From assembly GCA_008632985.1 (NCBI GenBank), contig QPGO01000150.1:1-64000 (forward strand): a DNA stretch of 64,000 nucleotides, written 5' to 3'. A model generated the notes under the pieces. The model did no database searches. It was given only the letters and a program-made list of their open reading frames with translations, and was not told the origin of the DNA. Source of the stretch: Psammoneis japonica. Its lineage: Eukaryota. The translations under genes and the position numbers were made by a program. This document shows, piece after piece, positions 15,852-64,000 of the stretch (positions are counted from its first letter, which is position 1; every line of letters begins with the position of its first letter).

Positions 15852-16074
15852 AGGCGATATTGCTGTGAGGCCCTGGCAGACGGGTCAGATCAACAGAATT
15901 CATTCATTCGGTGTAGTAGTCGTAACAGTAGCCATGAACATCTTTCTAACCCATACAGCTCACAGCAAGGACAAAATTGCTCACAGTCCCGCTGTTGTCG
16001 AGGCGAAGTCAAACAGTAGCTTTCTATTAAGACAGATCCTCTGCACCGATTAATGTGTGCAGTTAAGTAATCTA

Positions 16075-19762: not shown

Positions 19763-20205
19763 GAATTCGATTTTGAGGCTTGAAAAGAACCTAAACATAT
19801 GTGTTGTTTCCAAACTATGTCTTTGCATTTCGCCGACCGTAACATTATTGTTGAATAGAACATGGGGTGATTGACAGAGAACAGCACGCGCATTTGGTCT
19901 TCGAAGCATCTTCTTTCTTCTTGCGACACTTATCAGCACTGATAGATCCGCAGAGAGCACGAAGAGAAGTGCACCGGACTTTACTCTCGTTGTGATGCCC
20001 ACTATCTCGCTATGTCTCTATTTTTAGTGGCGGCCCTTCTCGTCTGCTGAAAAACTCTCTCCTCAATTCTACTAGAGTTATACTGTATTGCAGATAGACT
20101 GAACGGCACAAGTGCTAAAAAATGAATTCCTAAATGTAAAATACAAATACTATCGCCTGTATTCCAATGCAGCCATGCCGAAAAGCTTGCGTATGGCATC
20201 ACCTC

Positions 20206-37400: not shown

Positions 37401-38038
37401 TCACCAATCCCGGTGTTTGTTCCCGTCACGCCTTCCATGGGAAGATCCGGATGTCCCAGAGCCATGCCACTGTCAATGATGCAAATCGTCATATTTCCCG
37501 TTTGCGAAACGTTCCTCGGAATGTCCCATAATTGATCCGCTTGCACCATTTTCATGCCATATCCGACATTTTCATTCACGCGACGGCGTTGCTCTTCCGG
37601 TGCGAGTGGTTTCTTGGGGCGCTCCCGCGGTTGTAGTGCATGTACTTTGTGATTGAGCTCGACGAAATCAATATTAGGATTGTCCAACAACTCTCGAATT
37701 GCTTCTCTGTCGATCGTCTCGATCGACATAATGGGATGGTGCGGTAGTCTCTTGGATTTGACTCTCGACACCTTTCTCGCCAAAGACTTTCCTCTCCCAT
37801 TTTTGTACTTTACGAACAAAGATATTGCCTCGGTCAGTTCGTTGTCATCATCCGCGGCGATTCGAAGGATCTCAGCGCTTCCCGCGGACTCTTTTGTCCA
37901 CTTCTCTTTGCTCCTTTTTCTTAGCATCGACACGGGAGGAGATGTCTCGTTCGAAGGCAATTGGCAATCTGCGACTTGCAACATCACGGCACACAGCGCC
38001 GCTCCGATCCATGGTGTGCGAAGAAAGGAGAAAGTCAT
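34410..38038 (-). CDS. Secreted subtilisin-like serine protease (S8) with C-terminal beta-sandwich, ShK-like Cys modules, Pro/Thr linkers and three Cys-rich repeats; intron 36815-36897
   Basis: Signal peptide and propeptide; triad ICIIDSG, GHGTHCLG, W-S-G|TSMATP across the intron; AASGNAG oxyanion Asn. Confidence 0.92.
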
Positions 38039-41600: not shown

Positions 41601-44526
41601 GTGGTTCCTGCACATGCTGGCTGTGACAATGTTGTGCAGGTCAACAGCACATGACGTTGCAGAGTTCAATTGTGTTTGACTTGCACAAACTGACACTGAA
41701 TGGCAAAATGTGTGCATTGAATGAACAAACACACAAACGGAACTGCCCAACTAAAACAAACACACATCTGTGTGCACTGATGACATGGATGTAATGAAGC
41801 AAACCCATGAAACGACACCACCATCATTGGAGGCCGTCACCATCGACAATGGCATCTTCCAGCGGTCCTGCAACAAGAACACACCACCAGGATCACTCAA
41901 TGGAGAGCCACATCAATGCACTCCATTGATCTCTGTTGCATCAGTCCTCCAACTGACAGGTTCCTGTGGAAACCGGTCAGTCACGTGGACGCGTCCTCAC
42001 CTTTGGGTGCACCTTGGCCTTTGCCTCGGCGCACCCTCAGGTTCAGCTGCTCCGGCCTCCGTGGAATTTGCATGGGAGAACCGGTGCTCAGTCTGTCGGC
42101 TTCGTGACCGGTTCCGATGACCTCAGCTGATGCTTTGGTCATTCCCGCGCAAATTCCGCATCGGCCGGCCAGTGACTGAATGGTTTCCATGCAGAGCTGT
42201 TGCAATGGGCTTCGCTGAAAGACAGACCCAGTTTCACCTTGGTCTCTCTCTCACAACTTTGTCATCACTCAAGGGTGGTTGGTTGCTGCTTTGCATGATT
42301 TTTCCTGAATTTCACCGTGCTTCACCGTGGTGAAAACAACAAGCCACAAGTCTGTGACGGAGGTGGTCCATCTCCCAACTCTCATTTATTTTGTGTTTGT
42401 CATGTGTCAAAGATTGCATGCACATGAAAAGTTGGCAGACGGCAAACTGCATTTTTGAGAAATGTCAATGATTGTCATCATCATCGTGCTTCGATCGCGG
42501 TGTTGATGGCTCTCGTTTTTGTGCGTGATCAGGTGTGACCATGAATGATTCTTGCATTCAAAAATGAACACTGCAAAAAACCTCATTCAAATGCAACGGC
42601 AATTTTGGGACAAACGCGGGGATGACCCCCCTTGAGGATGGATCTGCGTGCTGCGGTCTGTTTTTTGGGAGCTCACAATTTTTGTAAAAATGACCCGGAG
42701 ATGCACCGCAGCAAATGCACGCGCGTCAGCAAAAAAAATTTCAGTGATGGGTCAAACTTTGTCCGTTCGCCAGACACCCTAGAATGCTTGAACGACAGGT
42801 GTGACCATGTGCGACTTTGACCTCAACAACTGCAGACATCATGTCCACAGCCAGTCAAATGCCACTCATCGGCATTTCCCGGAAAGTTGCCACTTGTCTC
42901 CCATGAGAAGCCCGATTTGAGCAAAAATTGGCGGTTTTTCCAACCTGACAACAGGGCACAGGTCGATGAGTGGCATTTGAAGCGCCAAATGTGCAGCTCT
43001 CACAGCCATCTGACAGCCCCTGTGTGAGGGTTTGACGAGCACACAAGTGTTCGGGGGTGTTCCGAGGCAGGTCAAAATGACATGGTGAAGTGCAGGAAAT
43101 GTGAGCCATTTTAAATTAGACCACAGCACGCAGATCCATCCTCAAGTCTTTGTCTCGTTAGACCTTCCACTGATTGACTGAACGTGAGAAAAGAGAGCTG
43201 CGAGCAAGAGCAGCACTTGGGTGATTGACCACCAGAAACAAGTGCAGCAACGCAAACGACACAAACAGAATTTGGCAAGCCGAGTGCATCATTTGGAATC
43301 AAAGGCATGGTCCTTGGAGAGGACTGTTTCACAATTGCACTCCACATTGCATGATGAGTGACTTGTTGACTCTTTACCACAGCGACACGCGCGCGTTTTT
43401 TTTTTCGTGCTGCGCAACGCAGAGCACCAACAAAAAAGACAACCAACATGGCACGTCGCCGTTCCGAGTCATTGCAACAGACAGCACCCCCATGCCATGC
43501 GGGGTGATCGTTGACACGGTAAAGTGCATTGTCATGGCTTGGTTTGGTTTGTTGTTGCGTTGGCGTTGTTTTTTCACGTCTTCACTTGCCGGCTGTCGTA
43601 TCGGCATTTCTTGCATTGTGTCATGCGCGACCGACCGAAACCAACAGAATCGGTGTTGTCGTTTCATCGTCTGCAGGACGGAATCTGGTGGAATGTCAAA
43701 CAAACAGGTGAGCACACATCACAGCACCATTGTTCTGTAGTGTCAGATTGTCCTTTTTAGCATTTCACATTCCCTCAGCTAACCCTTGCTTTTTGTGCCA
43801 CTGTTTCTTGCTTTTCACAAAGACAACAGAAAGGCACGTCGACGTTCGGAGTCATTACAATCAACTGCACCCCGACACCATGCTGGGTGATTGTCAACAT
43901 GGCAAGGTGTGTTGTGACAGCTTGGATTGGGTTGTTGTTGTGTTTTTGATGCGTTTTCAATTCGTGGTTTCTCACCGGCTCTTATCGGCATTTCTTGCAT
44001 CGCGACAGGTGTGACCGACCGAGGCTGACAGAATCGGCATTGTTGTTTTCGGCATCCTGCTGACAAAATCTGGTGGAATGTCAACAAATGGGCAAGCCTG
44101 CAACACAACACTGTTGTTCTGTTGATTGTGAAACCCAACAAGGAAACACTGGCTTGTTGCAGTTGAGGATTCGAAAGCAATCCGTCGCCCAGAGTGCCCC
44201 ATCTTTGACTTTGGAGACTCGAGTCCTGGAGCCAGCTTGAAAGAAGAAAGCTCGTACATGACTGTGAAATGACAACTCCATGTAGCTAAAAATTAAAGAC
44301 CTGTCACTGTGTGCCATTTGTTGTTGTTGACAAACATGCATCAGTGCGCAGTGCCGAGAAACAAAGAACATGCTTTAGCGCGTGATGCCGAGGTGTGACA
44401 TGAAATGCATTGAGCAATGAACAACAACGGAAGAGACGACAACATAAACTCACTTTAAAAAAAAGCAAACAAAAGCTTGCCTGCATCCATCGCTTTTGCC
44501 CCCCCCATCCACATTTCAAATCCAAC
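38700..44526. repeat. TpA-depleted degenerate repeat region, including a Pro/Gly-rich low-complexity tract (39700-40550) and ~380-bp degenerate tandem units (43450-44120)
   Basis: TA scarcity and TG/CA excess; repeated segments at 40098/40335 and 43450/43833; 20-bp tandem GACTGAGATCAGAGACCCCA at 39414 and 39437. Confidence 0.6.
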
Positions 44527-44728
44527 TGTGATTTGATTGCAGCTGTTCTGCTGTTGTGACAATCAAAGGGCTAAGAAAATTGTGTGTTAAAATAGAATGT
44601 GAACTTTTAAAGTGCGTGGTTGGTCTCTTGTCGGAAGCAAGTGCGTCAGCAAAGAATCTGGCTCTTGAATCAAGTTCAAGGACTAGGACAGTTTGCCTGT
44701 CTGTCCGTTTGACCCTAGATTCATCACA
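44527..44728 (-). repeat. Copia 3' LTR
   Basis: Differs from 50341-50542 at 7 nt in 5 dinucleotide sites; abuts the PPT. Confidence 0.95.
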
Positions 44729-47700
44729 CTCCCTCTCAAGAGCCAATGCAGCGTTGTTTCCTCACCAACCAAGCATGAACTTTCGATGCCGAACGAGCAA
44801 CTCTAGTGACAAAGGCTTGGTCAAGCAATCTGCAGGCTGAGCCTCGGTGTCAATTTTCACTGTCTCAATCTGTCCGCTCTGGACATGTGACCGGAAGTGG
44901 TGCAACTTGACATTGAGATGCTTTGTGCGAGGTCGGTGCTTGTGGACTCGCGCCATCTCTAGCGCACCGCTGTTGTCCTCGAACACTCTGCAATGGATCT
45001 TGGGTTCCGCTCGATCGATCGGAAAACCCTCTGCTTTCAATTCTTTCAGCATCTCCATCAAAGGGATCGCCTCTCGCAGGCACAGCTCAGTCCCGTGTGT
45101 TCGCTCTCAGTTGAAGAGAGACATGTTTCTCCCTGTAATTGGGATTTCCACGTGACCGGACATCCACCGTACATGATGACATGTCCATGTCTGGACCTTG
45201 CAGTGTCTGGATTCGAAGTGTCACTCTTGTCGAAGTTCCCCGCAAAATCCGCATCCACATAAACCTCGAGTTCCTTGGACTTGGTTGGCCGCATGACAAT
45301 TCCTTTGTCCCTCGTTCCCATGAGATGCCTGCCAACCACCTGATTGCCTCACCGTGCTCGACTTTTGGAGCTGCTGTGAACCTCGCGCACTGGTGAATTG
45401 TGCACGAACAGTCGCTTTGGGTGCCACGCTCCAAGCAATTCAATTTTCCAATCATGCTCCGGTGGTCGAAGCTGTTGTCAAAGTCTTCTGAGTCTTGGTG
45501 TCGACCCAAAATCACGGATGATGCAGCTGGAGTGTCTTTCGTCTTGGTGTTCTTCTGGAAGTTCAGTTGCTCCAGAATTTGATCGACAAGGTGAGGTTGC
45601 GTCAGATGCATCGTCCCGTCCGCTTTCCTGTCGACATTCACCCCAAGAAAATCTTGAATGTCGCCTTCCTCCATTGTGTTTAGGTCTGCGCTTCGCACAT
45701 CTTTCACGACTTGATCAAGCTCCTTTTTGTCTGGACCAGCAAGCAAAGAATCATCCGTGTGGAGGACGTGTGTGCACTTTCCTCGGAAGAAGACGCACTC
45801 ATCATATTTCGACTGCTTGAAGCCAAGCTTGTTGACAAGTTTGTCCACGAGACAGTCGTTCCACACTCGGCCAGCTTGTTTCTGACCGTGTGCATTTCGA
45901 TGGAGTTCGAGTGCACAGTCCTCCGAGTTGCCATCTTCTACCTTGAATCCCTTGGGAATTTTCATGTGGATCTCTCGCTCGACTGGGGCCTGCGGAAACG
46001 CCAGCACGCAATCGAGTTGCTTGGTGTGCCAATTGTTCATGGCTGAGAGAATTGGCAGCATTCGGATCGAGCTCCACGAGGCTGCAGGTGCGCATGTCCT
46101 GTCCGGATCGTAGTGAATTGACTTTTTCATCCTTGACCCGTCGATGTTGAGCCTCACCTTGTACTTTTTGACTTTTCTCGTCTTGATGTCGCGTTTCCGC
46201 TTCATTTGCCACACTGCAGGCAATGCTGTGGCATCCTTGGGGATCTCGGAAATGTGTCTCACCGAGAAGTTTCGGCCCCCGATCTGATCTTGGAATTCTT
46301 TTTCCATCGCCTTGACGAACTCCTTCGCATCTTTTTCCTTCATCGCTTCGTGGTGGTGCATGGCATCTGGGTCCGCCGTCGACTTGCAGGCATGCAAGGG
46401 ATCTTCTTCGGACAACTCTTGTTGAGGACAGAGAGATTCGAATCCGAAGATCTCTCCCTCCATCTCTCCAATGCATTCTTCAGCTCTCGCTGGCGACTCG
46501 GCGGCACATCTTGGGTTCGGTCCACTGACACGTCCCGATCTGGTCGTCACCAGAGGTGCGTCGCGTTGCGCTGCGTCTTGTTGTTGTGCTGGAGCTTCCA
46601 CGTTAGTAGCGCGCTGTGGGTCTGCCTCCTGAGCACTGGTTGGGAGGTTGCCATCCTCCCTCTGAGTTGGCGATTGTTCTCGCCTTGTGTTCCATTCAAG
46701 CTCGACCCATCAGGCTCTTGGTCTGTTGGTCGGCTGTCGTCGGCACTCAACCACATGGGTTGTTCCCCAGAGGATTTTCGTTTTCTCCTCTTCTTGTGGC
46801 TCTTCTTGTTCGTGAGCCTCACGCTGTTTTCGCGTTTTCTGTTGTTGGGGGTCTCGGATGCTCCGTCAGCCAGGCCATCGGCTGGTGGATCTTCAAAGCC
46901 TGCTTTGGCCTTCCATCCGATCTTCCAGCGCTCTTGTTGCGCCATGTGAAAACTCGGGTCGAATCTTACATGGAATTGTGGGCTCACTCGTCCTGTTTCG
47001 ATGTCGAGGACAAGCGCCACGTTTCGGCAGTGCACTGGCGATTGGCCAAGGTAAATTCCCACGTTGGACCTTTGCTTCCACTTGTTGAAAATGTTTCCCG
47101 TCTGAAGTGCTTCTTCTAGCACTGCCACAGGACACCCAAAAGGGTGACAGTGTTTTGAGTTTACATCCACTGCGGATGAAGTGAACAGCTGGCATGCACT
47201 TCGGCTCGCTGGATCTTTCAGCAGCGGCGTCTGTTCAGCGCTTGATTTGCCATTCGCAATGCGCACGGCCAGAGGTGAGGCGAGATGGCTTGTGGCCACC
47301 TCTTGTTCGCGTGAATCAACTGCGTTCTCGCCAGGTCTTGCAGATCTCGTATTTTCTTCTCTGCAATTCCATTTTGATGATGCGCATTCACTCCGGCAAA
47401 GGCAAGTCCCTGCCTTTGTTCTCGAACTGCGTTCACCCATGCCTTCGCCTTGAAAATGCCGTTGTCAGCATGACAGTGTCGGATTTTGATTCCACTTTCT
47501 TCTGCACGCTGCTCAAATGCTCTCTTCCCTCTCAACGTCTCTTCAGCAGAGCTCGTTTGCTGGAGGCACACGCATCCGTAGCCTGTGGCTTGGTCAACGT
47601 GCACAGTCGCACAATTGCAGCGGTTTTTGGCAAGTGTCCCCGTGTTCTGTGCTGCTGGTCCAGGTGTGCTCGAGACCAGCATGTCGACTGACACGACTTG

Positions 47701-50340
47701 TCCCGGTCTCGTAGGTGCAATTTTGTCCCACTCTTTTCGGTCCTTGGTCTCCATGGGCGCTTTGTTTGCTTCCCACAAAGGCATGCCGAGCAGACTGGGA
47801 CTGGGCACTTGGCCAGCGTGGGATCGATGAGCCTCATTTTCGCCATCTGTTGCAGGCGCTTGAATGATGTGTGACTGAATTTGTGATGCAGCTTCAGCAG
47901 TTTGGTGGTTTTTGTTTCTTCACCTCCATCTTGTCTGTCTTCCTTGTCTGGAACAACTGCCGCCGGACTGTCTTCATCCTTCTCCCCTTGCAGATCAAAT
48001 TCGGTCTGCCGTGGGGCGGCCCAGTCGATGGGTTGGGCCGCGGTGTCCAATGAGTGTAGACCTGCTTTTTGAAGGTGGGATTCTGAGAGCGTTTCGTCGT
48101 CAGCCTCGTCATCGCTAACAAGGTGAGCTTCAGAATCGTGTGCGATCATAGGATCGTCCTCGTCGTTCGCTGAAATTTTTGCCTCTTGACAGAAAGCATC
48201 ATATTTGGAGCAGCCGGGAGCCAGGGCGAACGTGGCGACGTTTGATTTCGTTTTGTCGATCGGTGTGGTTAGCTTGTGCGAATGTTGGCTCCAATGCAAA
48301 ACCGTTGCGCAATGGTTGGTGGTCTCCCCTGTCCCGCCAACGCGTCTTTTTGAGATTGCGCCCAGTGTTGTGGACTGAGCAGTCGCGCATCCTCGTCCGT
48401 GGGCACGTAGAACGAGTTGGGGATGCAAAACTTGTGTCGTTTTCCAGTGTCGTCTAACCAGCTCCATACGATTGTGCCAATCATAACTCCTTTCGTTCGT
48501 GTTCCTCCGAAACCCTTGATGTGGCGATTCGATTGTCGCAGTGGGCCTTCGAAATCTTCGATGAACGAAGAAATGCATCCGGAACAGCGATTGTCAACGC
48601 CGACCGGGCCTCCATCAGTGTCGAAAACGACGTTGTTCGTGCGTGCTGGGCAGGTCTGAGCTTTGAATGCCAAAGCCGTGCATGCGGTCCATGCATTGCG
48701 AATGCCTCGTGCCAAGTTCCATCGAGTGCACTTGCGGCGTCGACACTTCACGATTGCTCCCTCTAGGGAGCGAATCCGTGCTCGCATGGCTTGTGCCTCT
48801 TTCCCGTTCGGGCTGCTCTCCCCCGTCCACACAGGATTAACGAGTTTTCGGCGCTGTCGGGATCGATCTCGGCGTTCATGACGACTCTTGTTCCTAGATT
48901 TTTGTCGGTTCATCGGATTGGGCCGGATTGGTGAAAGGCAGGCTAGAATGTGCAGCAATGGCGACCAGATCGTCTTGTGGGACTCATGGGCTGCTCCCGT
49001 CAATCGCCTCCTCCATGTGGGTGACGTTGATGGTCATTCCGCATCCGAAGATGAATCGTCTCCGCCGTTCTTGATCGCTTCCATAGCTTGTGAAATGCGG
49101 ACGGCATTCTTCGTCGCACCGCGCTGCTCGTTGTCTTCTTCATCCCTCTTGGGAATGAATCCGAGTCCTTTGCAATCCTTGGGATGGTGAATTCGCCACT
49201 TTCCACCACATTTTCCTCCAGTGATCTTGTCACACCAATGGCACGGCTTGCCTTTCCACACGACGGGGATCTTTTCTTTACCCTTCGCCGGTGGTTTGGT
49301 GGGACCCTTCTCCCTGCGATGCCTTTTCGAGGGCTCGCGTCGTTTCTTCTTGTGAGCCTTTTTCTTTTTCTCAAGGCTCGCAATCTTGGCTGACAGAGCA
49401 ATGATCTGCTCCTCTTGAGGATCGGGAGCATTCCATTCTCCACTTTAATTCATCATCTTGAAGCGCTCGTTTGCCACATTCATGATGTCTTCAGGAGTCA
49501 TGTCTTGTCCCTCATCACACTGCTCCTTCTTCCTGCCAATGCAGTCAACGAACTTCTTGTCCGATGCGTTGGCACATCCCTTGAAGAGGTTTGCCAACAA
49601 GTCTTCTGCAGTCTCCCCTCGCGCGGCAAGCGCCTTCGTCATCATGAGCACACACTGATTGAATTTTGTGATGTCCGAGTTGATCGTATGAACACACTTG
49701 TCCAGTGATGACAACTTGGATCTGATGCTGGACGTTTTCGCATTCGAATCGAGATGGCTCTCGCGAATGATGACCTTGAGGAGCAGACACGCAGATGGAC
49801 GTTTCTGTTGGATGGGATCTCCTTCCCTTGGCTGGAGCATGCACTCCTTCTTGTGCATCAAGATCTTGTTCAGTGCCTGGGTGTCAAGACTCGCCATCAG
49901 ACACGAATGGAACACATGATTGTCCTGTGTCGCACGTCCTTCTTCGAAGAGGTGAGCTCTCTCGTGTTGCTCAATTTGTTCCACAGTGAGCTGTCCGCAG
50001 TTGTCCACCAGACAAACACGATCACTGTCTTGCTCTTCGGGGTTCAAGTCGACCAGCAGAATGGACAATTCACACTCGTCGTTGTTCCATCCGCAATCGC
50101 CCGCACGTTTGTCAATTGCCTCCAGAAACGAGAACAAACTATCTGGCGTGCAGTCGAACAACTCTTCACTGAGTTTGTACGTCGCTCTTTCGTAGAGCTT
50201 CCTTCCAGATGTTCTCCGACAGTCGATTGCGCCGGTCATGGCGCCCGCTGGCGTGAATGCAAATGGGACATCCTCTCCAGCAGCTGATGCGCTGCTGTCA
50301 GAATCCGCCATGGTGCAATCAGCTCAGCGCAGAGGAAGCG

Positions 50341-50542
50341 TGTGATTTGATTGTAGCCATTCTGCTGTTGTGACAATCAAAGGGCTAAGAAAATTGTGTG
50401 TTAAAATAGAATGTGAACTTTTAAAGTGCGCAGTTGGTCTCTTGTCGGAAGCAAGTGCGTCAGCAAAGAATCTGGCTCTTGAATCAAGTTCAAGGACTGG
50501 GACAGTTCGCCTGTCTGTCCGTTTGACCCTAGATTCATCACA
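50341..50542 (-). repeat. Copia 5' LTR
   Basis: Direct repeat of 44527-44728; abuts the PBS and gag ATG (50311). Confidence 0.95.
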
Positions 50543-51149
50543 TCCAACAGCATCAACACGACAACCGTTTCCAAAAATGTTCTTTCCAAAGGAAGAGCGA
50601 CTTCTTAAAAAGTGCCAGGTGTCCTTGCCATTCCTGCAGCATCTGCACTGACACCTGCATCCAAGCGACAGGCATTGCTGTGACAGTCTGCTGCCACGCC
50701 ATCAACAGCACTGCACTCTCTATTTTAATTCTGATGCAACAAATGAGCGCAGCCAGAAACACGCGTTGGTGTGTGATGCCAAGACATTGCATGAAATGTG
50801 TCGAGTGACAAATGACAACAACGCAAGAGACAGCAATGTAACTTGCTTTGGTGTTGAAACAAAAGATTGCCTGCATCTCTTTCGCCCCCCTTCTATGATT
50901 CAAAGCACAATTCACAGTTGTGATGTCTCAAACAGCGGAACAACAGTGACGCTTTGAATGCAGTCAAATTGCTGCAGCAGAAGAAGCGGCAACAACAGGA
51001 AGCATGTCATCAAACATCAAAAATGCAATTGGACGATAGAAGACATCACCCACTGTGGTGATTCTGTCACAACGGCGAAGACAATCACATCATGAAGGCT
51101 GTTTGCGTCGATGTGGTGTGAAAAAAATGTGCGTCCGCACGACCGCGCA

Positions 51150-54100
51150 AAAAATCCGCAGTGATCCGCAGTGGCAAACAAAGAGTTAAAAGAACCGTGC
51201 ATTGGCTGTGAGGCAAAATTTGAGCACTCTGATTTGGAGGACGTGAAATTGAGTCAGTCGCATGATGATGGAAGTGCTCGGAAGTGTCCACATTTTGATG
51301 GCACTCATGGCATTGAAGCTTTGTTGTTTGCTGAGGATTGTTTTCACAAAATCGTCATGAAGTTGGAGTTCACTTCAGGCGAAGAATTGTTTTGTGACTT
51401 TGAAGAAGTGCTGGCTGACACTGCTGAGGACAAATGGGCGAATTTGACCAATGCTGTCACTGATGCTGAATGCTGACAAAACTGTTGCATGCTTTGATCA
51501 AGAGATGAGCCATTTTCATCTGTCTTGCTGCAACAATGAAGTGCATGACACTGTGATTGAATGCTTGCCAACCTTGAAAAAACCATTTAAATCTGAAGCA
51601 CAGGTGCGTGCTGATCGCATGGAGACCCCAATCCGCTGTTCCAATGAGTTGCCAGGAAATGCTCCTCAAGTTGACAATGCTCAGAAGAAGAAGATGATCT
51701 TTGACAGCTTTCCTCATCTGTGGCGTGAGATGTGCATTGAGCAGGATGATCAACAGCTGATGACAGTCTCGCCCAGATCATCAGCCAGGTGAACAATGAG
51801 AAGTCCTTTGTCGACAAGAGCAACAACAAGAAGCAGGACAAGAAGTGAAAAAGCAATTCTTCATCCTCTCAAGCTTCAAGGCAAAGTCGAGGTGACAATG
51901 CTCAAGCTGATCCAGAGTCCAGATGCCCAGCACATGCCAACCGTCATGGTGGAGGTTCAGGTGGAGGCCGTGGAAACTTCCAAGGTGGAGGTTCACAAGG
52001 CCGAGGAGGTGGACGTGGCAGCTGCAGCAACCAAAGCAGTTGTGGTGGCCGAGGTCACAGCAACTGTCAAGGCTCTCAGAATCCCCAAGGCGGAGGATCT
52101 CTTTGTCAAAATCAAAATGGCACCCAAGCCAACAGCGATGCCCAAGGCTGTGGAAATCCAGCTGGAACAGCTCCTCCTGGTGGCTGGCAAATGGAGTTGC
52201 ACCATTTTGATCAAAGAGGGCCTCGTGAGGCGCGAGGTGGAAATGGGTGCAACCAAGGCGGTCGTTTTCCTCAAGGCCAATGCAGTTGGTGTAACAACAG
52301 GAACATTTTGAAAATGACCCGTGATGTAAAAAGCACAAAATGAGTGTGAACGCCTGCAGAAACTGCACGTTTTTGTGCTGAAACTGACATGTTCACACAA
52401 TTTGTGCAAAAATGGACTTGACTGTCATCAGGTCAGGCATGTTCTTGCAAATGTGTTGAAGAAAAATGTGCCTGATCAGAAAACAGTCAAGTCCATTTTT
52501 TGCACAGTTGAGCAAATTCACCAAGGACAGACAGACAGACTTTTCAATGATTGTCTTGGTGCTGTTCTGCACATTTCTGCGCAAATGACTCTGCAGCGCG
52601 AAAGATTGCTGTTGATTGACAAGGGATGGAAGTGCCCAAGTCAGAGTGTGTTGCTCAATCTTTTCATGTTTTTTGTGATTGTGATGAGTGCATTTGTTTT
52701 AATGTTGATGAAAGTGTGGGGGACCTGATGGAATCCCATGCTGTGAATGATCAAGAAACGGGTGGCGCCCTGGAGCACGCTGCACCAACCCCAAAAATTG
52801 CAACTCCCAAAGCATTGAATGTGGTGCCTGCAACATCAATGGCAGCACATGTGCAACTCAAAATCAAGAGAGCAAGCAAGTGTTGCGTGCATTGTCAGAT
52901 TCAGGAGGTGATGCTGACACATTTGTGCATTCTTGAGTTTTGCCAAAGGGAGCCAACCCGACTGTGAACGATGAGGGACAACTGAGTTTTCAGACAGCAG
53001 CCAGATGACATGAGTCCTCCCGATGTGCCATCATGAAGGATTTGGTGCTTCCTGAATTTGACAAGTCCAAACAAGTTGATGGAATCATGGCTCAAGTGTT
53101 TGACTCACCATGCAAATGTGACATGACATTGGGCCAAGATTTCCTTGCCAAAGCCGGCACAGTGTTAGATTTTTGGTTTGGAGTTGTGAAGTGGTTGGAT
53201 GCCACGATCCCAATGAAGCAATCCAATGATTGGAGCCAGGTTCAGAATTGGTTGGATGTGCTGGGCAATCACGAGGAGGATGAAAATGACAAGGAATTGC
53301 CAGGTCAATCCCACATGTTAGATGCGAAGTGTGAAAAGGTGTTGACCATGGAAGTGGCGCAATCACAGACTCATTCAACACAGGAACAATGAAATGAACT
53401 TCAAACCATGCTTGAAAAATGTGAAACTCTTTTTGATGGAACCCTCAGCAAACATCCACATGAGACTGCACACTTGGAAGTTGATCCCAACGCTGCTCCC
53501 TTTCATTCCAAAGCTTGTGAAGTGTCCAAACAAGCGAGGTGGTTTTTAAGAAGGAACTGCAACACCTCTGTGATGTTGGAGCACTGGAACCAGTGGGGCC
53601 AATGGAATGGGTGGCAGGAACCTTTGTGACACCCAAGAAGGAGATGGACGAGTGAGGTGGGTGTCTGACTTTCGAGAGTTGAGCAAGGTCCTCAAGCAGA
53701 AAGTTTGCCCTCTGCCAATTGTCCAAGATGTTGTGCACTGCCAATCAGGGTGCAAATTTTTCACCAAGTTGGACCTCACCATGTTTTGTTGTCAAGTGTT
53801 GAGTCCACTGAGGAAGTTTATGATGCATGTCCCATGAGGACTTGAATGCCCCACAAAAAACCATTTAAATGTTCATGCTCTAGATGCCTGTAAAAGTCAA
53901 TCCATCTAAGTGTTTTGTGTGAAAATGCCACACACACTGAAGACACACAATTCACACTCAAAATCAATTGTTGTTTTGTGCATCACCTGGGACTGGAACA
54001 CGTCTCCAGACTGGAGGAAAATGGCCTCAAAGTCAATCCACTCAAATGTGAGTGGTGCATCCAAGAGACAGATTTTCTGGGCCATTGGCTCACACCCACA

Positions 54101-56350
54101 GGAGTTCGACCATGGAAGAAGAAGGTTGATGCAGCACTGCGAATGCAGCCTTCTCAGAACATGATGCAACTACGATCGTTCATCAGCGCAGCAACCTGCC
54201 ATCAAAACATGTGGCCCCGTTGCTCTCATGCACTTGCTCCACCAACCAAGTTGATTGGCAGAAGCAAATTGGGTTGGACCCCAGAGTGTCAGAAAGCATT
54301 TCAAGATGTGAAGACTTTGATGATGGATGGCACCCTTTGGGTCTGCCTGAATCACAACAAACCCTTCCACATCTGCGCTGATTCCTCCGACCATCAAATG
54401 GGCGCAGTGATCATGCAAGATGGAAAGCCGGCAGCGCATTGGTTGTGGAAGCTCAGCACCGTGCAGCAAAATTGTTCAACCATCAAGAAGGAACTTCTCG
54501 TGGTGGCAATGTGTTTCAAAGAATTTTGTTCCATGTTGCTTGGAGATGATTGCACTGTTTTTGCTGATCATAAAAATCTCACCTTTTGCACACTCAATTC
54601 TCAACGAGTGCTCAGGTGGAGACTCTTTTTGGAGGACTTTGCCCCAACTTTTGAGCATGTTGATGGCAAGGACAACCTGTTGGCAGACTGTTTTTTGCAA
54701 TTGCCACATGTGGATCCACCGTCGGAAGGAAAGTGTGCTCCAAATGAAGGCAAGCTGATGGATTTCAAGGTGATCGACACTGCCATGCTGCCTCATGGAG
54801 AGGAGTGAGACAACACGGATCGTGTGTTTGTTTCACTTGCTGCCGGGAAGAGCCATCTCAGTTCTGTTCCTCCTTTGTTGATGATCCTGAGCCATGTGAA
54901 TCATTCTTGAACTGTCCCTCACTTGATGAAATGCAAAACCCAACAACTGTGCAATGGATTCAGGAGCACCAATTTGTTGATGTGGAGCTGAATGACACGC
55001 AACAACAATGCCCAATGACCCATTGTTGAACATGTGAACCAGTGTCCTGTGATTTGTTGTCATGCTCATCCCAATGCTCCTCCAACAGAGTGGAAAATTT
55101 GCATCCCTGCTGCTTTGTTGCATGATGTGATTCAATGGCATCACAGGACATTGGGGCATGCTGGAATGCGCCGCATGCACGCAACCATTGGAGTGCATTT
55201 TTGTCATCCTGTCCTTCATCAGACTTGTGAAGAATTTTGTTGTGCTGATTGTCAACGCGCTTGAAAACTTTGGGTCCTGGATGTGGGGAACTGCCTGAAT
55301 GCAAAGCATCTTTGCTGCCATGGAATGAAGTTGCAGTCAACCTCATTGGTCCCTGGAGGATTGACACTCAGGGCCAGGAAATTGCACTCAATGCTTTGAC
55401 TTGTGTCGGTGCTGTTTTGAATGTCACTGAACTCATTCGCATTGACAACAAAACCTCTGAGCATGTTTCCCAGCAATTTGAAAATTGTTGGTTATCTTGT
55501 TGTCCTTGTTCTGACTGTTGTGTGTTCATGACAATGGCGGAGAGTTCATTGGAGAAGACTTTCAGCTGTTGTTGCAACAGGCAGGAGTGGAGGATGCACC
55601 CACTGTGTCCAAGAATCCACAAGCCAATGCGGCATGTGAACACATGCATCAAACTGTTGGTGACATCTTGTGCACTTTGCTTCACCTTTGCTCTCTGCAG
55701 AACATCAGGCAAGCTGACCAACCAGTGGGTGACACTTTGGTGACGGCGATGCACGCAATGTGGTGCACCATGTCCCGAGCTCTCAAAGTTTCATTTGGTG
55801 CTGTGGCACTTCATCGTGACATGACATCAGACCTGCCAGTGCCAGCGGATCTTGCCACTGTTCAAGAACACCAACAAGGAATTGTCAGTGCAAATCTCCG
55901 CAGAGCAAATGCCAAATGATGATCCTGCAATTTTCAAGTTGGCAGTGCTTGTCAAGACCATTGATCCCACCAAGCTTGCACCTTGAGCACATGGTCCTCA
56001 CCCCATTGTTCAAGTGCATGCCGGTGGTGCCATTGTGGTTCAACAAGCACCTCACGTGGTGGAACGACTTAATGTTTGGCATGTTGCACCATGTCGAGTT
56101 GAGGTCAAGGGTTTTTTCCCCAACTCTTGGGTTTCCCTTGTTTCCTCTCATGGAATTTGAGTTGAAATTTTAAAATTTGGGAGTCCCGGAAGATTCATGG
56201 AAGGGAAGAGTGCAGTGTCAAGCACCCCATTTTTCTGACACATGGTGTCAATGATCCCATTGGACACAAGAGGAGCCATTGCAATGGGCTTTGCTGAAAG
56301 CAACCTTGTCACCTTGGTCTCTCTCTCACAACTTTGTTGTCACTCAAGTC
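51150..56350 (+). mobile_element. Degenerate Ty3/Gypsy LTR retrotransposon (gag-PR-RT-RH-IN, PPT, probable 3' LTR start)
   Basis: gag with RGG/Gly-rich tract (51940-52280); PR end CDMTLGQDFL; RT GRVRWVSDFRELSK, FTKLDL, LKVNPLKCEW; RH ADSSDHQMGAV, DHKNL, RWRLFLEDF; IN HRTLGHAG..CADCQ, PWNEVAVNLIGPW, HDNGGEF, NPQANAACE; PPT GGAAGGGAAGAG 56199-56210 followed by TG. Confidence 0.9.
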
Positions 56351-58626
56351 TTTGTCTTGCTGGACCTTGCATTTGTGATGCAAAATGTCCTGCCATGGCC
56401 AATGACCTGCCACACGTGTGCAAACATTTCGAGTGTGCTGCAGAACCCCCGGCGCACTGTCCCTGTGGTGTCTCATGGCATCATCCAAGATTTGGTTGTC
56501 TTGAGGCTCAGCTTTGATGCTTGCACTGCCCAGCATCCGTGTGTGGTGGCAGCAGCTCTCACCCTCTTCCTTTTGCAGCCTTTTGTCAGTGGCCAGTTGC
56601 TTGGGGGCACTGTTGTTTGCAGCCACATTCTTTCCTTTGACTGGCTTTGTGGTCTGCTGCTCAAAAGTGCTTTAAGAGCCAGCAAATTGTGCCAAATTCT
56701 GGCACTCTTGTTTGCACAAACCAGCTTGTCAATTTTTTTTTAAGTCAGCCATCTGATGTCCTCTGGTCTGTGCTCCCCTCTCAAATGCCGGGGCACAACA
56801 GCCACTCAAGCATTGCTGCTCTTGCCCAGTTTGTCCTTTGGGTTTGCTGTGCTCTGGCATTTTGACGCTCATCTTTTGCACAAAAAAACCTCAATCTGCA
56901 AAAAAAAAAGGACAGCAGCAACAACACCCTGAGTTGAAAAGCTCATCACACATGTGCGCTGAAAGTCAAGCACAACTGATGCTCACCACAACCTCAACCA
57001 AGGCAACAACTGCCCCACACACACCCACACATGCACGCACATCTGCAGAAACAAAATGATGCCCAAAACAGCACGCAACAAGCAGCCAAGATGATGCAGA
57101 CCCCAGCTGTGCTGCAATCTGACAAACCCAGATTTTCAAGAAATCTCTGCAGCTGTGAGTGCCAAAAAGCTCTTCTTGCGGTGGGCCAAGAAGCTCGTGT
57201 GAAAAGGTTGTTTTCAACAAAAAATTAAATTTTGCAGAGACTCAAGAACACATCACACAGCTTCTCTTTCCATGTGAGGATGTGAGTGTGCCTGACCAAG
57301 ACAGATGGCACATCATGAGATGCGGGAAATTTTTTAAAACAGTGGCTGAGGGTGCATCTTAAGAGAATTTCCAGCTGAGCATCAGCCAATGAACAGCCAA
57401 CTCAGCTTGTTCAGCCACTCACCTCTGGAGCTTTTAAGGCTGATGGAGCTGGGACAAACAATGCACAGTGGCTCCCCATCTCTCAACTTTGCTGAGCAGC
57501 CAATGCACATGGTTGCCTGTGCCACACTCATCATCAAAAATCAACCGCTGTTGTTTTCCAACAAATTGCATGGGGGGGGGGGGCAAGCAGTCCAAAAAAT
57601 GCAGCAGTGTGTCCAGCGGCTTCTTTGTTGCAGTGCCAACCAAGTTAAAATTAACCCCGCCTGTTGGCAAGTTGATGCTTTGGAGTCTGAGAAATGCTTG
57701 TCATTTGAATGGCTCAAGAAGACAGCAGGGCTGTGTTGGCTGCACACCAGCTTTTTTGGCAAAATGTCACACGCTCTGACATTGCACGATCCAGTGCTCC
57801 TCGAGCTGAAGGTGCAGCAGCAAAATGGCAAAGCAATTGCACAAGGTGATTGCTCCCCTTCTTGTCTGTCGGGAACACAGAAAGGCTCAAGTCAATGGTG
57901 ACATCCAGCACATCAGAGTGCACAATGTCGCAATGTCTGCACACATGACAAAAATGTGTTGCCACATCATAAAATCCACTTGTCTGCACATGACGGTTTT
58001 TGTCATTTGGTCAATTGTTGATCTCCTGCTGTTCTTCATGTTTGAACACAGATGTTTTTTAATTTTTGTGCTCTGCCTTTTTCACAACAACTGACGATCT
58101 TCAATGACAAGCCAAACACTGCAATTGCATGCAATGAAATTTTCATCATGCAAAGTGTGCACTGATCATTTAATCAACAACTGTGCTCCAATTTGCCTGG
58201 TCGTCCCATCGTCCTCTTCATTCCACATGTCTTGTCCGCTCTCTTGCAAGAATTTCAAATGTGCCGCTGCCGCGTTGGATGTTTCCTCGTCGCCGTTCCA
58301 AAAAAGCCACACTGCATTTCTTGCATTTGGGCGAACATCATCAAGAGGAAGAGGTCCCTCGAAACGCTGAATCGCATCGCTGCTCCCCTCTTGACGTCGT
58401 GTCGTCGGCTTCTTTTTCTCTTTCTTCATTTTGCCCGTCCTGTTTTTCTCTTCCTTCCTCATCTTGGTGCCGCCTGTTTTCACCGTCTCCGGCATCTTTC
58501 CATCCGAATCCTTCTTTTTCATTGACCCCGTTGCTGTCGCCTTCATCTCTTGTTGTTGTTGTTTTTTTTCTGTTGTGTGTCACTTTGTTTTGGATCCATG
58601 TTTCTGACTTCTCTCTGTGCTGTCTC

Positions 58627-59016
58627 GACGCGTTCCAGGTCTAGGTGGGACCTCGCACTGCTGAACTGTGACATCGATAGTTTTTTGAGTCTCGTCGTAT
58701 GTCGCGCACGTAGATTTCTACGTGATTTTTTCGATATTTTGTGTCATTTTACGGTACACTTATTGAGCGATCCGTCCAACAACTTTTGACATTTTTTGTT
58801 ACAGCGCGATTCTACAATGTCTTAAGAATCGCGTAGGGCAGGCGAAGTTGCAAAAACGTCGAGTGGTAAGAGGCATAATTGTACCACAAACTTGGCCGTT
58901 TATTTGATGTTGAAGATAAATATATCCATTAATTAAATTCTCGTACTACGGAGCTCGCACGTAGAATTCTACGGGCCCAATGTCACAAGGAGTCCCACCT
59001 AGGGCTGGAACGCGTC
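58627..59016. mobile_element. 390-bp inverted-repeat-bounded element (MITE-like or protected regulatory island) with normal TA content
   Basis: 25-bp IRs GACGCGTTCCAGGTCTAGGTGGGAC / GTCCCACCTAGGGCTGGAACGCGTC (23/25 match); TCTC on both flanks; internal repeat CGCACGTAGA(T/A)TTCTACG twice. Confidence 0.6.
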
Positions 59017-59738
59017 TCTCCATTTCCGAATGTTTCTTTATGATTTGCGTCACTTGAAGGCACCCACGTGTTTTTCACGCACCTTAAAGCGCACGCAGAA
59101 ATCCATGTTGTTTTCCTGTGCATGCACCCTTTCTCCTGATGCTGTTCTGCACAACATTTTCTTCCATCAACTCTGCACTCCGCACTGCCCTTTCCCGGCA
59201 TGATCTCATGCAGGATTTCCCTGGGAGAAGTTGCACACGCGTCTGGCAGGTTTTTGTGTTTAAAACTCCAAATCGTGCCAGGCGCGTGTGTGACTTCTCC
59301 CACACACCACTCTGGCACATTTCTGCAGAAACCAGATTTTTTGGTGTTGGAACAGCAACCATGGCGCCACGTGACCTGTCAGCTGCCTCTCTGTCACAAG
59401 ACAACAATGATTCCTGCCTCGAGGAGGCCGCATTTGAATCTCTCTTTGCCAACGATTTTGGAGTGATCGATGGCAACGAGCGGAGCCACGTCAAAGTGAC
59501 AATCGAGACGGTGAAATCCAAGGTTCAGTTTCACCATGATTCCACTTGTGATCCCTCTCCGAATTGGATCGCGCTTGCCTGTGTGTGGCAAAAGTCAAAG
59601 GGCAGACCTCATTTTTTTGCAGAGCCAATGGCTGTGAATCGCACTGTTGCAAAGGAACTTGGGCACAAGAGCTTGCTGCACTTTCTTTCCGCAAAAGGAT
59701 GGAGTTGTTCCAGTTGAGGTGCCAAACATCCTCATGCG

Positions 59739-62700
59739 TTGGAGCATTGTCGTGCTCCCAAAGCAGAGGACATGAAAGTCATCGGCAACAAGGCAAAATC
59801 AACAGACATTGCAACCAACATGATGGCAAAGATTTCCATGTTGTGCAAGCTTCTCCATGATCCCAGATTGTGTGACCCAAAGGGAGAGCCACTTGTCAAG
59901 CACATCAAGCTGAGAAGTTTTGAAGGGAAGGTTTTGCGTTGCGCGCAATGCCTTCACATTGGTTTTTTGATTCTTTGTGACAAGATTCTGCCATGCACAC
60001 CTGAAAGGAATGGTGATTGCAGTTGTTGGCTGCACTCCCTGTTCGGCGAATGTGACAAGACATCGACTTGCATCAACTTTTTGGAGAATTTCCTGGCTCT
60101 TGGTCACTGTGAGACGACCAAAGACGAGTGCCCCATGTCCTTCCCTGAATTCGTAAAGTCGTTGTTCCGCCAACACAAAAATTCTTGGGAAAAGCCCGCG
60201 CGACCAGCGATGCTCGATGTCGAGCGAGAACAAATGCGCGCAACACATGTCAATGAGACTCTTTTAAGATGTGTGAAAATTGATCGTGCAGTTTCTGCCG
60301 CTGACGATTCCAGCAAAAGCAAGGCTGCAAGGGATCGTTTGGAGGCCATGTGGAAAGCCAGGCTTTGTGACTTTGCCACTCAGCACAAGAAGAAAGAAAT
60401 CGGCAATGCAATTCCATCTGTTACGAAAAATGCTCGGAAACGAAAAAATCCAAATGGTGTGAATCCACCACATTGTTTGATTGATTGTTTGTGCTCCTCT
60501 TCTTGTCTCCAATTCTTCCACTCTTCTTGCCAACTCTTTAGCTGCCTCCCTTTGCTCCTCAAGCCCCAGTCTCAAAAACCCCAAAGATGGTGAACCTTCT
60601 GATGTTTCTCAGAACGAATCGCTGATTCTCCAAGATGTGCCGACTCTCAAGGAACAATTTGAATGTTCCCGAACAAAGTGGCCAACCCTCGGTGCGACTC
60701 ATCAGTCACCTCCTCCTCTGCCAGACAATTTCACAAAAGAAGAGCTTGTGAAAGTGTTTCCTGAACCATCTCCGTTTGCGATTCCGGGTGAGGTGAAGTC
60801 ACAACATTCTCGCCTTGTCGTCTTTGAGGAAACCCCCATTTCCGGTTCCTTCAAGGGGAGCTGTGTCAAGCACCAGTTGTTCCACAGCATCTCCGATTTC
60901 CACTTGGTGAATCACCTCCACAAGTTTGTGCATGGATTTGAAAACAGCACAGCTCCCAATGATCCGACGCAAGAATCAATGGTTGCGATTGCTTGCCTGA
61001 CCCAGTCAACCTCTCATTTTTCGACGTGGTCACTCATTTGTGACACACGGACAAGATGTGTCAGAAACACTTTTTTGGATTGCGATTCAGAGTGTCGTCG
61101 ATGCTCCGTGCAGTGTTGGAACATGGCGAGCCAAACGAAAAAAGGGATGGACCAGAATGCAAGTTGCGCTGTCGGATCTGTTTTGGTTGTTGTGGCCAGA
61201 ATTGCGAAGTCGTGGATGGCGAGTTAGCTGAAGTGGGACCTGCTCACAAGCCTGGTGCTGTCTTTGGCAGGGACAAGTGGGAGAAGCTTCCAAAGGATGT
61301 GCAGGTGATGATGGCCTCAATCTTGGACGCCACGCAACTCTGCAAGGATGAAATTAATCTTGTTGCTTTGAAAGAAATGCGCTCCTTCCATGACCCGCAC
61401 CGTGACAGTCTTTTCGCGGCTGAGCTCCGCAAGATGGTTGGAGCCAAGCATGTTAGAAGGACAGGCGTGGAAATTCAAGTGAAGTGCATCTCATCATCCG
61501 GCAAAAAATCCGTCAATTCGAAAACCGAGCTGCACATTGACAAAGAGGATTGTGACATGGATGGGTGCACCAAGACTGGTGCTCTTTGCTTGTCACCATG
61601 AGACGCTGTTGGTTGCTCTTGGTCGTTGAAGGTCATCACTGCATCCAAAGGCAATGCTGGAAACTGTGTCAGTTTGGCACATGGGTGTGCCGAGTTCCGA
61701 TCGCGTGTGCATGGTCATTTCACAAAACTTGATCTGTCACATGCTGCAGAAATGATGAAACACCGTGGCCCTTGTCGTCCTCCGTCGGGCAAGCCAACCC
61801 ACAGAAACATCAAAGATTTTTTCCTTGACCCTCACTCTGTGTGGGTGGAAGAGGAAATTGGCAAGCCAAATCTTCCGTCCGACACAGTTGAGTGTCCCGT
61901 CATTGTCATGCTGAGGAAACGTCTTCCGTTTGCCATCGTGGAGGACTTTAATTTTTTGTGCAGTTGTTCGGCAATCATCGACAACCTCGATGAGGTTGGT
62001 GCATGTGATTGCTTTCGTTGCGCCGTTGTGGCTGGGTGTCAAACCGGATTCTCCCGTTTTCACTGCTTGTTGTGCAACACAGATGCTGTGAAGCGTCCTT
62101 TCGTGGCTGGCGATCATGTCCTTCATTGCTTCAGAGAAGCTGCATGGCCATTCAGCAGCATTGCGGGGGATCGCAACAACCGACGCATGCAGAGCCCGGG
62201 ACTCGATTTCGAGGAGGTTCATGTGGCAGAGTGCGGGACGAAACTCAATGGTTTGATGGACTTGCTTGTTGGCGGACTGGTTGTTGTCATTGACTGGATC
62301 AATGACAATGTTGGCAAGCCAACATTTAACCACAAGGCGATCGAGGACATGTTTGAAACCATGGTCCAAACATGGGATCATGCAGGTGCTGATCATGGAG
62401 AGCTCAGATGCATGAACTCCACACAGATGTTGATGCTGTGTGGCACAGGGATCCATCCTCACCCTGACCTTCGTAATCTTGTCTGTCCGGCTGCCAAGTT
62501 GGGAGCGGCGAAGCAAATGGAGGAAATGAAGGTCCCCGATTTACTCTTGGAACGGATGGAGGGTGATTTTGATTTGGAAGACCATGGAAAGAATGGCCCA
62601 GAGTCTTTGCCATGTGACCTGAGTGCAGCTCGTGAAAAGATGGGAATCTGCGATGTCTTTTGTCATGGACAGCATCTGTTGCTCTTGTTCTCTGATGGGC

Positions 62701-62771
62701 AGTCAATGATCAAGCGGTTTGGAAGGTGTGAATGGGAGCCAGTCCCATTCGTGTCAATTGATGAAGTTTGA
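59739..62771 (+). pseudogene. Decayed long coding region of unknown family inside the TA-depleted block
   Basis: Consecutive + strand ORFs 59739..60593, 60481..61227, 61056..61601 and 61626..62771; protein-like composition but no Tyr and excess Cys/His. Confidence 0.5.
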
Positions 62772-62835
62772 GTCAAACTGGAACGGCAAAGAGAGGTCAC
62801 TTTTTCATGGCAATCACATTTGTTTTTTGTCTGAT

Positions 62836-64000
62836 CATGCCAACATTGTCACATTGAATTCTCGTTCTAACAGGAAGAAGGCCGCCGGTGATTTGTTGTC
62901 ATTCGCAATGAACAAAAGTGACGATTGCAAGGAGGAGTCAATTGACGAGAAAACAAGCGAACTTCCAACCACTTGCATGGGTGAAGAGGACAAAAGCAAA
63001 GAGCCCATTGACGATGAGCACAACCAAGTTGCACATTGCTCCGAGGGTGAAGAGGACCACAGCGACTTGGGAGATTGTTTCGCAGGTGACGAAACCAGCG
63101 GGGAAACACACAATGTGCTGTGGTTGGGGATGACCCATCCGCTCAATGCAAGGCATCTATCTTCTCAAGAATTGTGCTCTGAGAGGGGTGGCCTCAGTGT
63201 CGTCCGACCAACACAGGCGAGATGAGGCCCGCGCAATGGCATTTGAGGAAACTGACAAAACAACCACAAACGTCGTTCCAACAGTTTCTCTCCAAGATGG
63301 CCATCCTGATCTGCGTTTAAATTGCAGTGTGAGAGCAAGAGATTTTGTCAAGAGAGTCAAGCAGCAGTTTGAGAAACTTGTTGATTTCGACAATCATGGG
63401 TTCGACCAAATCATGTTGGACCACTGCTGGATGCCAGATGGAGAGTGGCGTGACAGTCGTTTTGGGACGACTCAATTTTTCCAGAGTCCAATTGATCTTT
63501 GGGCCTTGCTCTCCAAAAACGAAGAAGGGGGGGACATGGTGATTCCCTTTGCTCTTGCAACCTTCTTCCAGGTTGTCAAACACATGCCAACATTGTCACA
63601 TTGAATTCTCGTTCTAACAGGAAGAAGGCCGCCGGTGATTTGTTGTCATTCGCAATGAACAAAAGTGACGATTGCAAGGAGGAGTCAATTGACGAGAAAA
63701 CAAGCGAACTTCCAACCACTTGCATGGGTGAAGAGGACAAAAGCGAAGAGCCCATTGACGATGAGCACAACCAAGTTGCACATTGCTCTGAGGGTGAAGA
63801 GGACCACAGCGACTTGGGAGATTGTTTCGCAAGTGACGAAACCAACGGGGAAACACACAATGTGCTGTGGTTGGGGATGACCCGTCCGCTCAATGCAAGG
63901 CATCTATCTTCTCAAGAATTGTGCTCTGAGAAGGGGGTGGCCTCAGTGTCGTCCGACCAACACAGGCGAGACGAGGCCCGCGCAATGGCATTTGAGGAAA
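62836..64000 (+). repeat. Recent direct duplication, period 747 bp (62836-63253 matches 63583-64000; runs off the window)
   Basis: Near-identical copies; 4 of about 7 differences are CG vs TG/CA. Confidence 0.9.

Follow-up and report, generated by a model that had tools for sequence, protein, structure and literature searches.

Flank-dependent loss of TpA by transitions, confined to repeats, in a 64-kb stretch of Psammoneis japonica DNA

TA-depleted repeats of the window

We analyzed positions 1 to 64,000 of contig QPGO01000150.1 from Psammoneis japonica (the window in what follows), which holds protein-coding genes together with remnants of repeats, among them a Ty3/gypsy and a Ty1/copia retrotransposon, that have lost nearly all of their TA dinucleotides. 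The window is diatom nuclear DNA, because the nearest named relatives of a PEPCK open reading frame (ORF) at 20842-22155 on the minus strand are those of Fistulifera, Seminavis, Discostella, and Thalassiosira (63-68% identity), and because its long ORFs have few introns and carry PT-repeat, subtilase, and M64 peptidase domains. In the gene regions the observed/expected ratio (O/E) is 0.4-0.7 per kb for TA and about 1 for CG. The repeat remnants, 26.5 kb of the window, have a TA O/E of 0.03-0.13, with TG and CA O/E raised to 1.5-2.1 and CG O/E of 0.14-0.92. They form depleted blocks at 4.85-7.05, 12.4-14.15, 38.85-58.0, and 59.2-64 kb, whose edges are sharp; a TA at 38715, for example, is followed by none until 39289. 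The repeats of the window, including long terminal repeats (LTRs) and a miniature inverted-repeat transposable element (MITE)-like insert, are as follows.

50700..58000, TA-depleted repeat block with the main finding; TA O/E 0.06, CG O/E 0.33
52704..56106, plus strand, degenerate Ty3/gypsy polyprotein (protease, reverse transcriptase, RNase H, and integrase; PR-RT-RNaseH-IN) with frameshifts and stops, delimited by tblastn and a hidden Markov model (HMM) of 70 homologs
44527..50545, minus strand, Ty1/copia LTR retrotransposon (Pfam RVT_2, gag_pre-integrs, and SH3_retrovirus); TA O/E 0.13, CG O/E 0.92
44527..44732 and 50341..50545, minus strand, LTRs of the copia element, 206 bp, 96% identical, found by self-comparison of the window
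58183..58626, stretch with 0 TA and 25 CG (CG O/E 1.01); TA gone, CpG retained
58627..59016, MITE-like insert of 390 bp with 25-nt terminal inverted repeats (92% complementarity), interrupting a depleted block
4850..7050, sharp-edged repeat island depleted in TA and CG, without a Pfam match; TA O/E 0.05, CG O/E 0.21
12400..14150, TA- and CG-depleted repeat island with a 400-bp internal duplication at 90% identity; TA O/E 0.03, CG O/E 0.14
38850..44200, TA-depleted repeat block, family unnamed; TA O/E 0.09, CG O/E 0.62
59200..64000, TA-depleted repeat block, family unnamed, with many related contigs in public run X1; TA O/E 0.05, CG O/E 0.67

Pfam gave no match in 16 of the 20 ORFs of the depleted blocks, and those repeat families are unnamed. 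LTRs were looked for at the gypsy polyprotein (52704-56106) and were not found. Comparison of repeats within the window yielded 19 pairs, too few for a mutation spectrum. From the public sequencing run X1, 7867 related contigs could be aligned to the window, in which the genes are spared from TA loss. The public runs listed as matching the window included no RNA data set.

A is lost only where it follows T. The A share of purines in depleted DNA vs baseline is 0.043 vs 0.328 after T, 0.577 vs 0.590 after A, and 0.561 vs 0.561 after G (ratios after A or G, 0.93-1.05), and it is raised after C because CG becomes CA. By trinucleotide, the A share falls to 0.05x in TRT, 0.07x in TRC, 0.17x in TRG, and 0.28x in TRA, where R is a purine and Y a pyrimidine. 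The GC content is 0.493 in depleted DNA vs 0.480 in the baseline. A first-pass annotation of the window had argued that GC-biased gene conversion is not the cause, and we agree: A after A or G is untouched, which excludes both GC-biased conversion and a general A-to-G drift, and CG is changed to TG alongside, in the opposite compositional direction. The loss of TA is also separable from CpG decay, since TA is gone from the copia element and from 58183-58626, yet their CpG is intact.

No stop codon can arise from the change of TA to TG or CA, and TAA and TAG are removed by it, which accounts for the long ORFs, up to 504 codons, of these dead, Tyr-poor elements (0-0.8% Tyr vs 2.5-4.8% in the genes). 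Stops arising from CGA to TGA, as well as frameshifts, are present in the depleted elements. The copia element at 44527-50545 (minus strand) has kept ORFs of 288-504 codons, with most of its conserved Tyr residues replaced.

The 390-bp MITE-like insert is unmutated, with a TA O/E of 0.90 and a CG O/E of 1.53. Its summed contig depth in run X1 is by far the highest of the aligned stretch, although such depth is not copy number, and in other copies of the host repeat, which are without the insert, contig joints skip 395 bases. In an Rfam scan of 57800-59400 the only matches were two below threshold, attributable to chance. The presence of an unmutated MITE inside a depleted block means that the effect is element-specific rather than regional, and that copy number alone is unlikely to be the trigger.

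Flanking bases, strand, and timing

The TAs that survive are mostly in the context YTAR. The first-pass annotation had put the number at about 20 of about 29 TAs in 51000-58300; the exact count is 21 of 30 (TTAA 17, TTAG 2, CTAA 1, and CTAG 1), the remaining nine being in one-sided contexts. It had also described RTAY as nearly absent, which is borne out by 0 of 30 in this interval (probability of no RTAY, 5e-6 to 2e-4). Its estimate of about seven YTAR among nine TAs at 12200-14300 is exact, with one RTAY; at 4800-7100, for which it gave about six of nine, the exact count is close, at five of eight with no RTAY. The interval 59000-64000 has 20 TAs, 13 of them YTAR and none RTAY, while the bias is weaker at 39000-50000 (77 TAs, 35 YTAR, 9 RTAY). 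The expected YTAR share of TAs is 0.13 from the genes of the window, 0.20 from 80 related gypsy elements in metagenomes, and 0.25 from the local Y-R skeleton; the corresponding probabilities of at least 21 YTAR among 30 are 1.7e-12, 4.9e-9, and 2.7e-7. The YTAR bias of surviving TAs is confirmed by these counts, and it is carried mainly by TTAA, in part by the junctions of T runs with A runs. None of the 80 related metagenome loci (TA O/E 0.42-1.08) has YTAR-biased survivors, so the TA-poor state is not a trait of the family; a second instance was not found among them. One metagenome locus, L059, is the sole related gypsy locus hinting at a bias, with a TA O/E of 0.42, a YTAR share of 0.24, and an RTAY share of 0.12.

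Because transitions preserve the purine/pyrimidine skeleton, we expressed survival as the TA share of all W-(TA, TG, CA, or CG)-X for each pair of flanks W and X, and set the depleted DNA (26.5 kb) against two baselines, 33.4 kb of genes and the 80 related gypsy loci. The depleted DNA contributes 122 surviving TA sites to the table below, which gives survival relative to the gene baseline.

TTAA, 0.78
CTAG, 0.32
CTAA/TTAG, 0.32
GTAA/TTAC, 0.15
ATAG/CTAT, 0.09
ATAA/TTAT, 0.09
CTAC/GTAG, 0.07
GTAC, 0.03
ATAC/GTAT, 0.02
ATAT, 0.02

Survival thus varies about 40-fold with the flanks, and the order is the same against the 80 related elements (0.43 down to 0.012). Uniform survival is rejected with either baseline (twice the log-likelihood difference 130 for genes and 94 for relatives, 3 degrees of freedom, p 5e-28 and 4e-20). 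As TpA is self-complementary, each TA offers two targets, one per strand, and this yields the order of survival by flank. A four-parameter model in which the adenine of each strand is hit independently, according to its 3' base, fits all ten classes (p 0.65 for genes, 0.29 for relatives), with fitted doses of 2.0-2.2 for a 3' T, 1.8 for C, 0.7-1.1 for G, and 0.2-0.5 for A. When the depleted segments were examined separately, YTAR survived better than one-sided contexts and these better than RTAY in eight of eight.

Survival across NTAN contexts is not made uniform by controlling for composition and for poly-T/poly-A; the gradient persists with runs set aside, so the runs add protection and the flank effect stays. 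TTTAAA is not depleted (survival 3.9 against genes, 0.96 against relatives). TTAA extended on one side has a survival of 0.88/0.61 (genes/relatives), TTAA extended on neither side (VTTAAB) 0.35/0.18, and other YTAR 0.32/0.15; in the same stratification by T and A runs, YTAY/RTAR stand at 0.10/0.07 and RTAY at 0.025/0.020. An A at +2 also protects, with a survival of 0.48 for TAAA and 0.42 for TAAC vs 0.16 for TAAG and 0.14 for TAAT.

The direction of the changes was read from conserved protein positions, by comparing window codons with the conserved columns of profile HMMs built from 70 full-length homologs of each element. An emission threshold of at least 0.5 left just 75 positions, and thresholds of 0.2-0.4 were used; unless noted otherwise, conserved columns are those with an emission of at least 0.3. 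The gypsy element has 343 such positions with 104 differences, 78 of them resolvable: 22 A>G (16 after T, all 16 then followed by Y), 20 T>C (16 before A), 12 C>T (10 before G), 15 G>A (14 after C), and 9 transversions. In copia, 519 positions gave 92 differences, with 22 A>G (19 after T, all then followed by Y) and 23 T>C, of which 22 precede A and have A (9), G (8), C (5), or T (0) as the 5' base. None of 22 consensus Tyr residues is kept in gypsy (none of 24 at emission of at least 0.2), the 22 having become Cys (10), His (8), Phe (3), and Trp (1), and copia retains 6 of 35, with 14 now Cys and 12 His. In Tyr codons the two strands compete, and the outcome can be compared by 5' base: after T, where the A of the opposite strand sits in TAA, seven codons became Cys and one His, and after a purine, nine became Cys and 13 His (Fisher p 0.039). 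At the same codon phase after T, all 13 scorable Ile/Met/Thr codons changed by A>G, and both scorable Lys/Asn codons were kept (p 0.0095, with small numbers).

TAY>TGY and RTA>RCA are thus seen directly in the conserved Tyr, Ile, and Thr codons of the gypsy and copia elements. The first-pass annotation had proposed that an A:T pair is hit when its A lies in 5'-TAY-3' or its T in 5'-RTA-3', YTAR being spared. The per-strand model, the Tyr outcomes, and the codons following T uphold the TAY target, but not as a switch between Y and R: the preference is graded, with TAG intermediate and TAA nearly immune, the +2 base counts, and TTAA dominates among the survivors. An asymmetry of the TG and CA products has the predicted sign in six of six contexts for all depleted DNA with the related elements as baseline, and is supportive under a transposon baseline only.

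The two LTRs of the copia element differ at seven positions, all in pyrimidine-purine (YR) dinucleotides: two TG/CA doublets, TA/CA, TA/TG, and CG/TG. By the mechanism of reverse transcription the LTRs were identical at integration, and as they now differ at YR only, the change took place after integration, on DNA. Other internal duplicates in the window show TG/CA doublets too. Against the window, contigs of run X1 with at least 80% likeness have 1783 transitions and 402 transversions (counted by place), and among 40 listed of the 2187 differing places nearly all are in YR dinucleotides, with seven TG/CA doublets. The YR differences of the LTR pair and of the copies indicate that the process hits integrated DNA, in each copy independently and much faster than background change. 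The repeats of the window therefore carry a per-strand, flank-dependent signature of TpA transitions that is confined to repeats and arose on integrated DNA.

Candidate agents and comparison with known systems

The data show a mutator that is confined to repeats in this diatom and acts on integrated DNA, where it turns TpA into TpG or CpA through transitions that may fall on either strand, beside and apart from a slower CpG decay. The rate at which an adenine is hit depends on its flanks, with a 5' T obligatory and the 3' base ranked T~C > G > A, roughly 10 : 9 : 4-5 : 1-2.5, and further protection comes from an A at +2 or from a T-run/A-run junction. RTAY thus presents two good targets (2-3% left), YTAY and RTAR one (7-15%), and YTAR none (about 15-35%), with TTTAAA not depleted. 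We infer that the agent would be an enzyme, as yet a predicted one, directed at transposon chromatin or at repeated DNA. Its most likely form would be a base-flipping adenine deaminase with a strict pocket for a -1 T, converting A to inosine, which is read as G; a deaminase is favored because nucleic-acid deaminases usually combine a strict -1 base with a graded +1 base, strict -1 preferences being known from cytosine and tRNA-adenine deaminases. Taken as a whole, a flank-ruled TpA mutator of repeats, enzymatic and most likely an adenine deaminase, seems to us the probable explanation. We hold more tentatively, at somewhat under even chances, that the window records a natural genome defense that edits A:T to G:C at TpA in transposons, a mirror image of repeat-induced point mutation (RIP) with -1 T obligatory and +1 Y > G > A, and that its agent would be either a DNA adenine deaminase, the first to occur naturally in a eukaryote, or an enzyme that modifies thymine at TpA.

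Several points weigh against this explanation. A context preference alone is no proof of an enzyme, and because the data are strand-symmetric, an attack on A (TAY) and an attack on T (RTA) look alike. All results come from one 64-kb window, and ancestral TA frequencies are represented by proxies (genes or the elements of other species) rather than by reconstructed ancestors; some of the surviving TAs may be new rather than old. The very abundant 390-bp MITE is unmutated and fits poorly with a simple copy-number trigger. As to direction, the Y after every A>G that follows T is partly forced by the genetic code, in which Tyr is TAY, and in gypsy the T is preceded by a pyrimidine in 7 of the 16 T>C changes before A. 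The Tyr outcome after a 5' Y vs a 5' R is not significant (p 0.13), and the same-phase comparison leans on only two scorable Lys/Asn positions. The product asymmetry depends on the baseline, having the predicted sign in three of six contexts with the gene baseline and, for gypsy alone, in three of six (relatives) or two of six (genes).

A rival explanation is a by-product of DNA modification, in which a TpA mark (an oxidized thymine in RTA, or a modified adenine) mispairs, the flank rule is that of the modifying enzyme, and there is no dedicated mutator. Oxidized thymines mispair with G, and the loss would resemble the decay of CpG through 5-methylcytosine. In its favor, TpA shares the palindromic form of CpG and is lost from the same elements, a T>C rule at RTA accounts for the data no less well than an A>G rule at TAY, and sharp edges at element boundaries are expected of a chromatin-targeted mark. 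In copia and at 58183-58626, however, the loss of TA has been far faster than that of CpG, and a nearly complete loss in an element whose LTRs are without differences outside YR looks burst-like rather than like slow decay. A literature search, which yielded a dinoflagellate review, found no such mark on record for diatoms. We consider a mark unlikely, while giving it appreciable weight. Much less can be said for ADAR-like deamination of double-stranded transposon RNA that was then fixed by reverse transcription and re-integration. The balance of A>G and T>C in the TA context (16 and 16 in gypsy, 19 and 22 in copia) is that expected from both RNA strands, and the two identified elements are both retrotransposons, but the copia LTRs differ at TA-derived sites, necessarily later than integration, where editing of RNA would have left changes common to both. 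ADAR is also active after A and favors a 3' G, whereas here adenines that follow A are untouched and a 3' pyrimidine is preferred. Blocks without a retroelement domain are equally depleted, and the conversion is nearly complete. Editing of RNA is in our judgment highly improbable.

An artefact, with a modified base at TpA in repeats being misread by the sequencing chemistry and TA shown as TG or CA, deserves mention because systematic miscalls at modified motifs occur on some long-read platforms and because the only public run with the stretch may be the sample from which the window itself was assembled, and so not independent. Nevertheless, the contigs of run X1 account for 0.85 of the 31-letter words that were sampled, with a word depth near 125, the same site is TG in some copies and CA in others, the flank rule is strand-specific as a mutation process predicts, and the stops from CGA>TGA and the frameshifts represent real decay, leaving very little probability for a miscall. 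We give least credence to the absence of any targeted process, whether through GC-biased gene conversion, a general drift in the composition of heterochromatin, or selection that disfavors UpA in the RNA of transposons. TA is moderately scarce throughout the window (O/E about 0.5-0.6 in genes), which is in its favor, but neither the unaltered A after A or G and the similar GC contents, nor CG>TG in the opposite compositional direction, nor the undepleted relatives are in keeping with it, and the destruction of the conserved Tyr of the gypsy element rules out selection for function.

Among known systems, the likeness is greatest to RIP of Neurospora and other fungi, which is also a dense transition hypermutation confined to repeats, with sharp element boundaries, action on both strands, a dinucleotide rule, and the destruction of coding capacity. 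RIP changes C:G to T:A mainly at CpA and so creates TpA, whereas here A:T is changed to G:C at TpA, which removes TpA and creates no stops; the dominant changes are those counted above, A>G where T precedes and T>C where A follows, and the combination of low TA with raised CA and TG is not that of a CpA>TpA preference. The host also differs, being a diatom, and a very abundant repeat of 390 bp is spared. What is seen here is a RIP-like process with opposite chemistry. Decay of 5-methylcytosine at CpG is likewise a repeat-confined loss of a palindromic dinucleotide to TG and CA, and it is at work here as well (CG O/E 0.14-0.67 in most blocks); C>T at CpG accounts for the CG component only, as in the gypsy C>T before G and G>A after C. 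It is unable to remove TA, and the TA component is independent and complete where CpG is intact. According to PMC9998398, diatom DNMT4 is related to RID and its function is not known.

The first-pass annotation had named a TadA/ADAT-like DNA deaminase as a plausible but unproven candidate. The native TadA site is U-A-C-G, and like TadA/ADAT and the TadA-derived editors, the process in the window turns A into a G-like base, has a 5' pyrimidine (the target adenine is preceded by T, as it is for TadA/ADAT), and accepts a 3' C. We know of no natural member of TadA/ADAT that acts on DNA. The differences are that a 3' T is preferred at least as much as C here (TAT dose 2.0-2.2, TAC 1.8) and that both strands of chromosomal repeat DNA serve as the substrate. 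For comparison, a review (PMC13109818) describes a preference for YAC in a TadA-8e A48E editor. ADAR hyper-editing and APOBEC resemble the present case in their clustered transitions that inactivate retroelements, but their targets are RNA or pre-integration cDNA and they follow other neighbor rules, whereas here the LTRs diverged after integration and the A share after A, together with the 3' order T~C > G > A, does not follow that of ADAR. Our literature searches returned only fungal RIP and unrelated work and turned up no account of TpA-specific mutation of repeats, whether for diatoms or for other organisms; the preprint 10.1101/2025.10.24.684338 does not take up dinucleotides, hypermutation, or deamination.

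The known forms of repeat-directed hypermutation change C to T (RIP, APOBEC editing, and 5-methylcytosine decay), so the removal of TpA by A:T-to-G:C changes would, if the proposal is true, be a new chemistry of genome defense, and it would imply that an enzyme of high context specificity exists in nature which works on duplex chromosomal DNA, either editing its adenine or modifying its thymine. To our knowledge, only directed evolution of TadA has so far yielded such activity. The flank rule (5' T obligatory, 3' T~C > G > A, +2 A protective) could serve as a fingerprint for candidate enzymes, for assays, and for other genomes. In diatom genomics, repeats of this kind keep long ORFs, lose Tyr, and drift away from their families, with consequences for the calling of genes and the annotation of repeats; with no new stops made and TAA and TAG vanishing, dead elements look open to gene callers.

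Other repeats and genes of the window

Within the depleted block at the end of the window is a 418-bp direct repeat (62836-63251 and 63583-64000) with 98% identity. Its copies have six differences, four of them CG/CA or CG/TG and two G/A after A. Because none of these is TA-derived, the repeat at 62836-64000 would seem to have been duplicated once TA loss had happened.

Two PEPCK_ATP-coding stretches on the minus strand, at 16072-17378 and 20203-21501, have 72-74% DNA identity and appear to be a diverged tandem pair of genes or gene fragments. A 665-codon ORF at 710-2562, for which a Pfam scan gave no match, contains internal repeats of about 400 bp at 71-77% identity and is probably a repetitive protein-coding gene. 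Proteases that look secreted (M64 peptidase and subtilase), with PT-repeat linkers and Cys-rich modules, are encoded at 8667-11944, 28526-30611, and 34410-38038, in several copies flanking the PEPCK genes.

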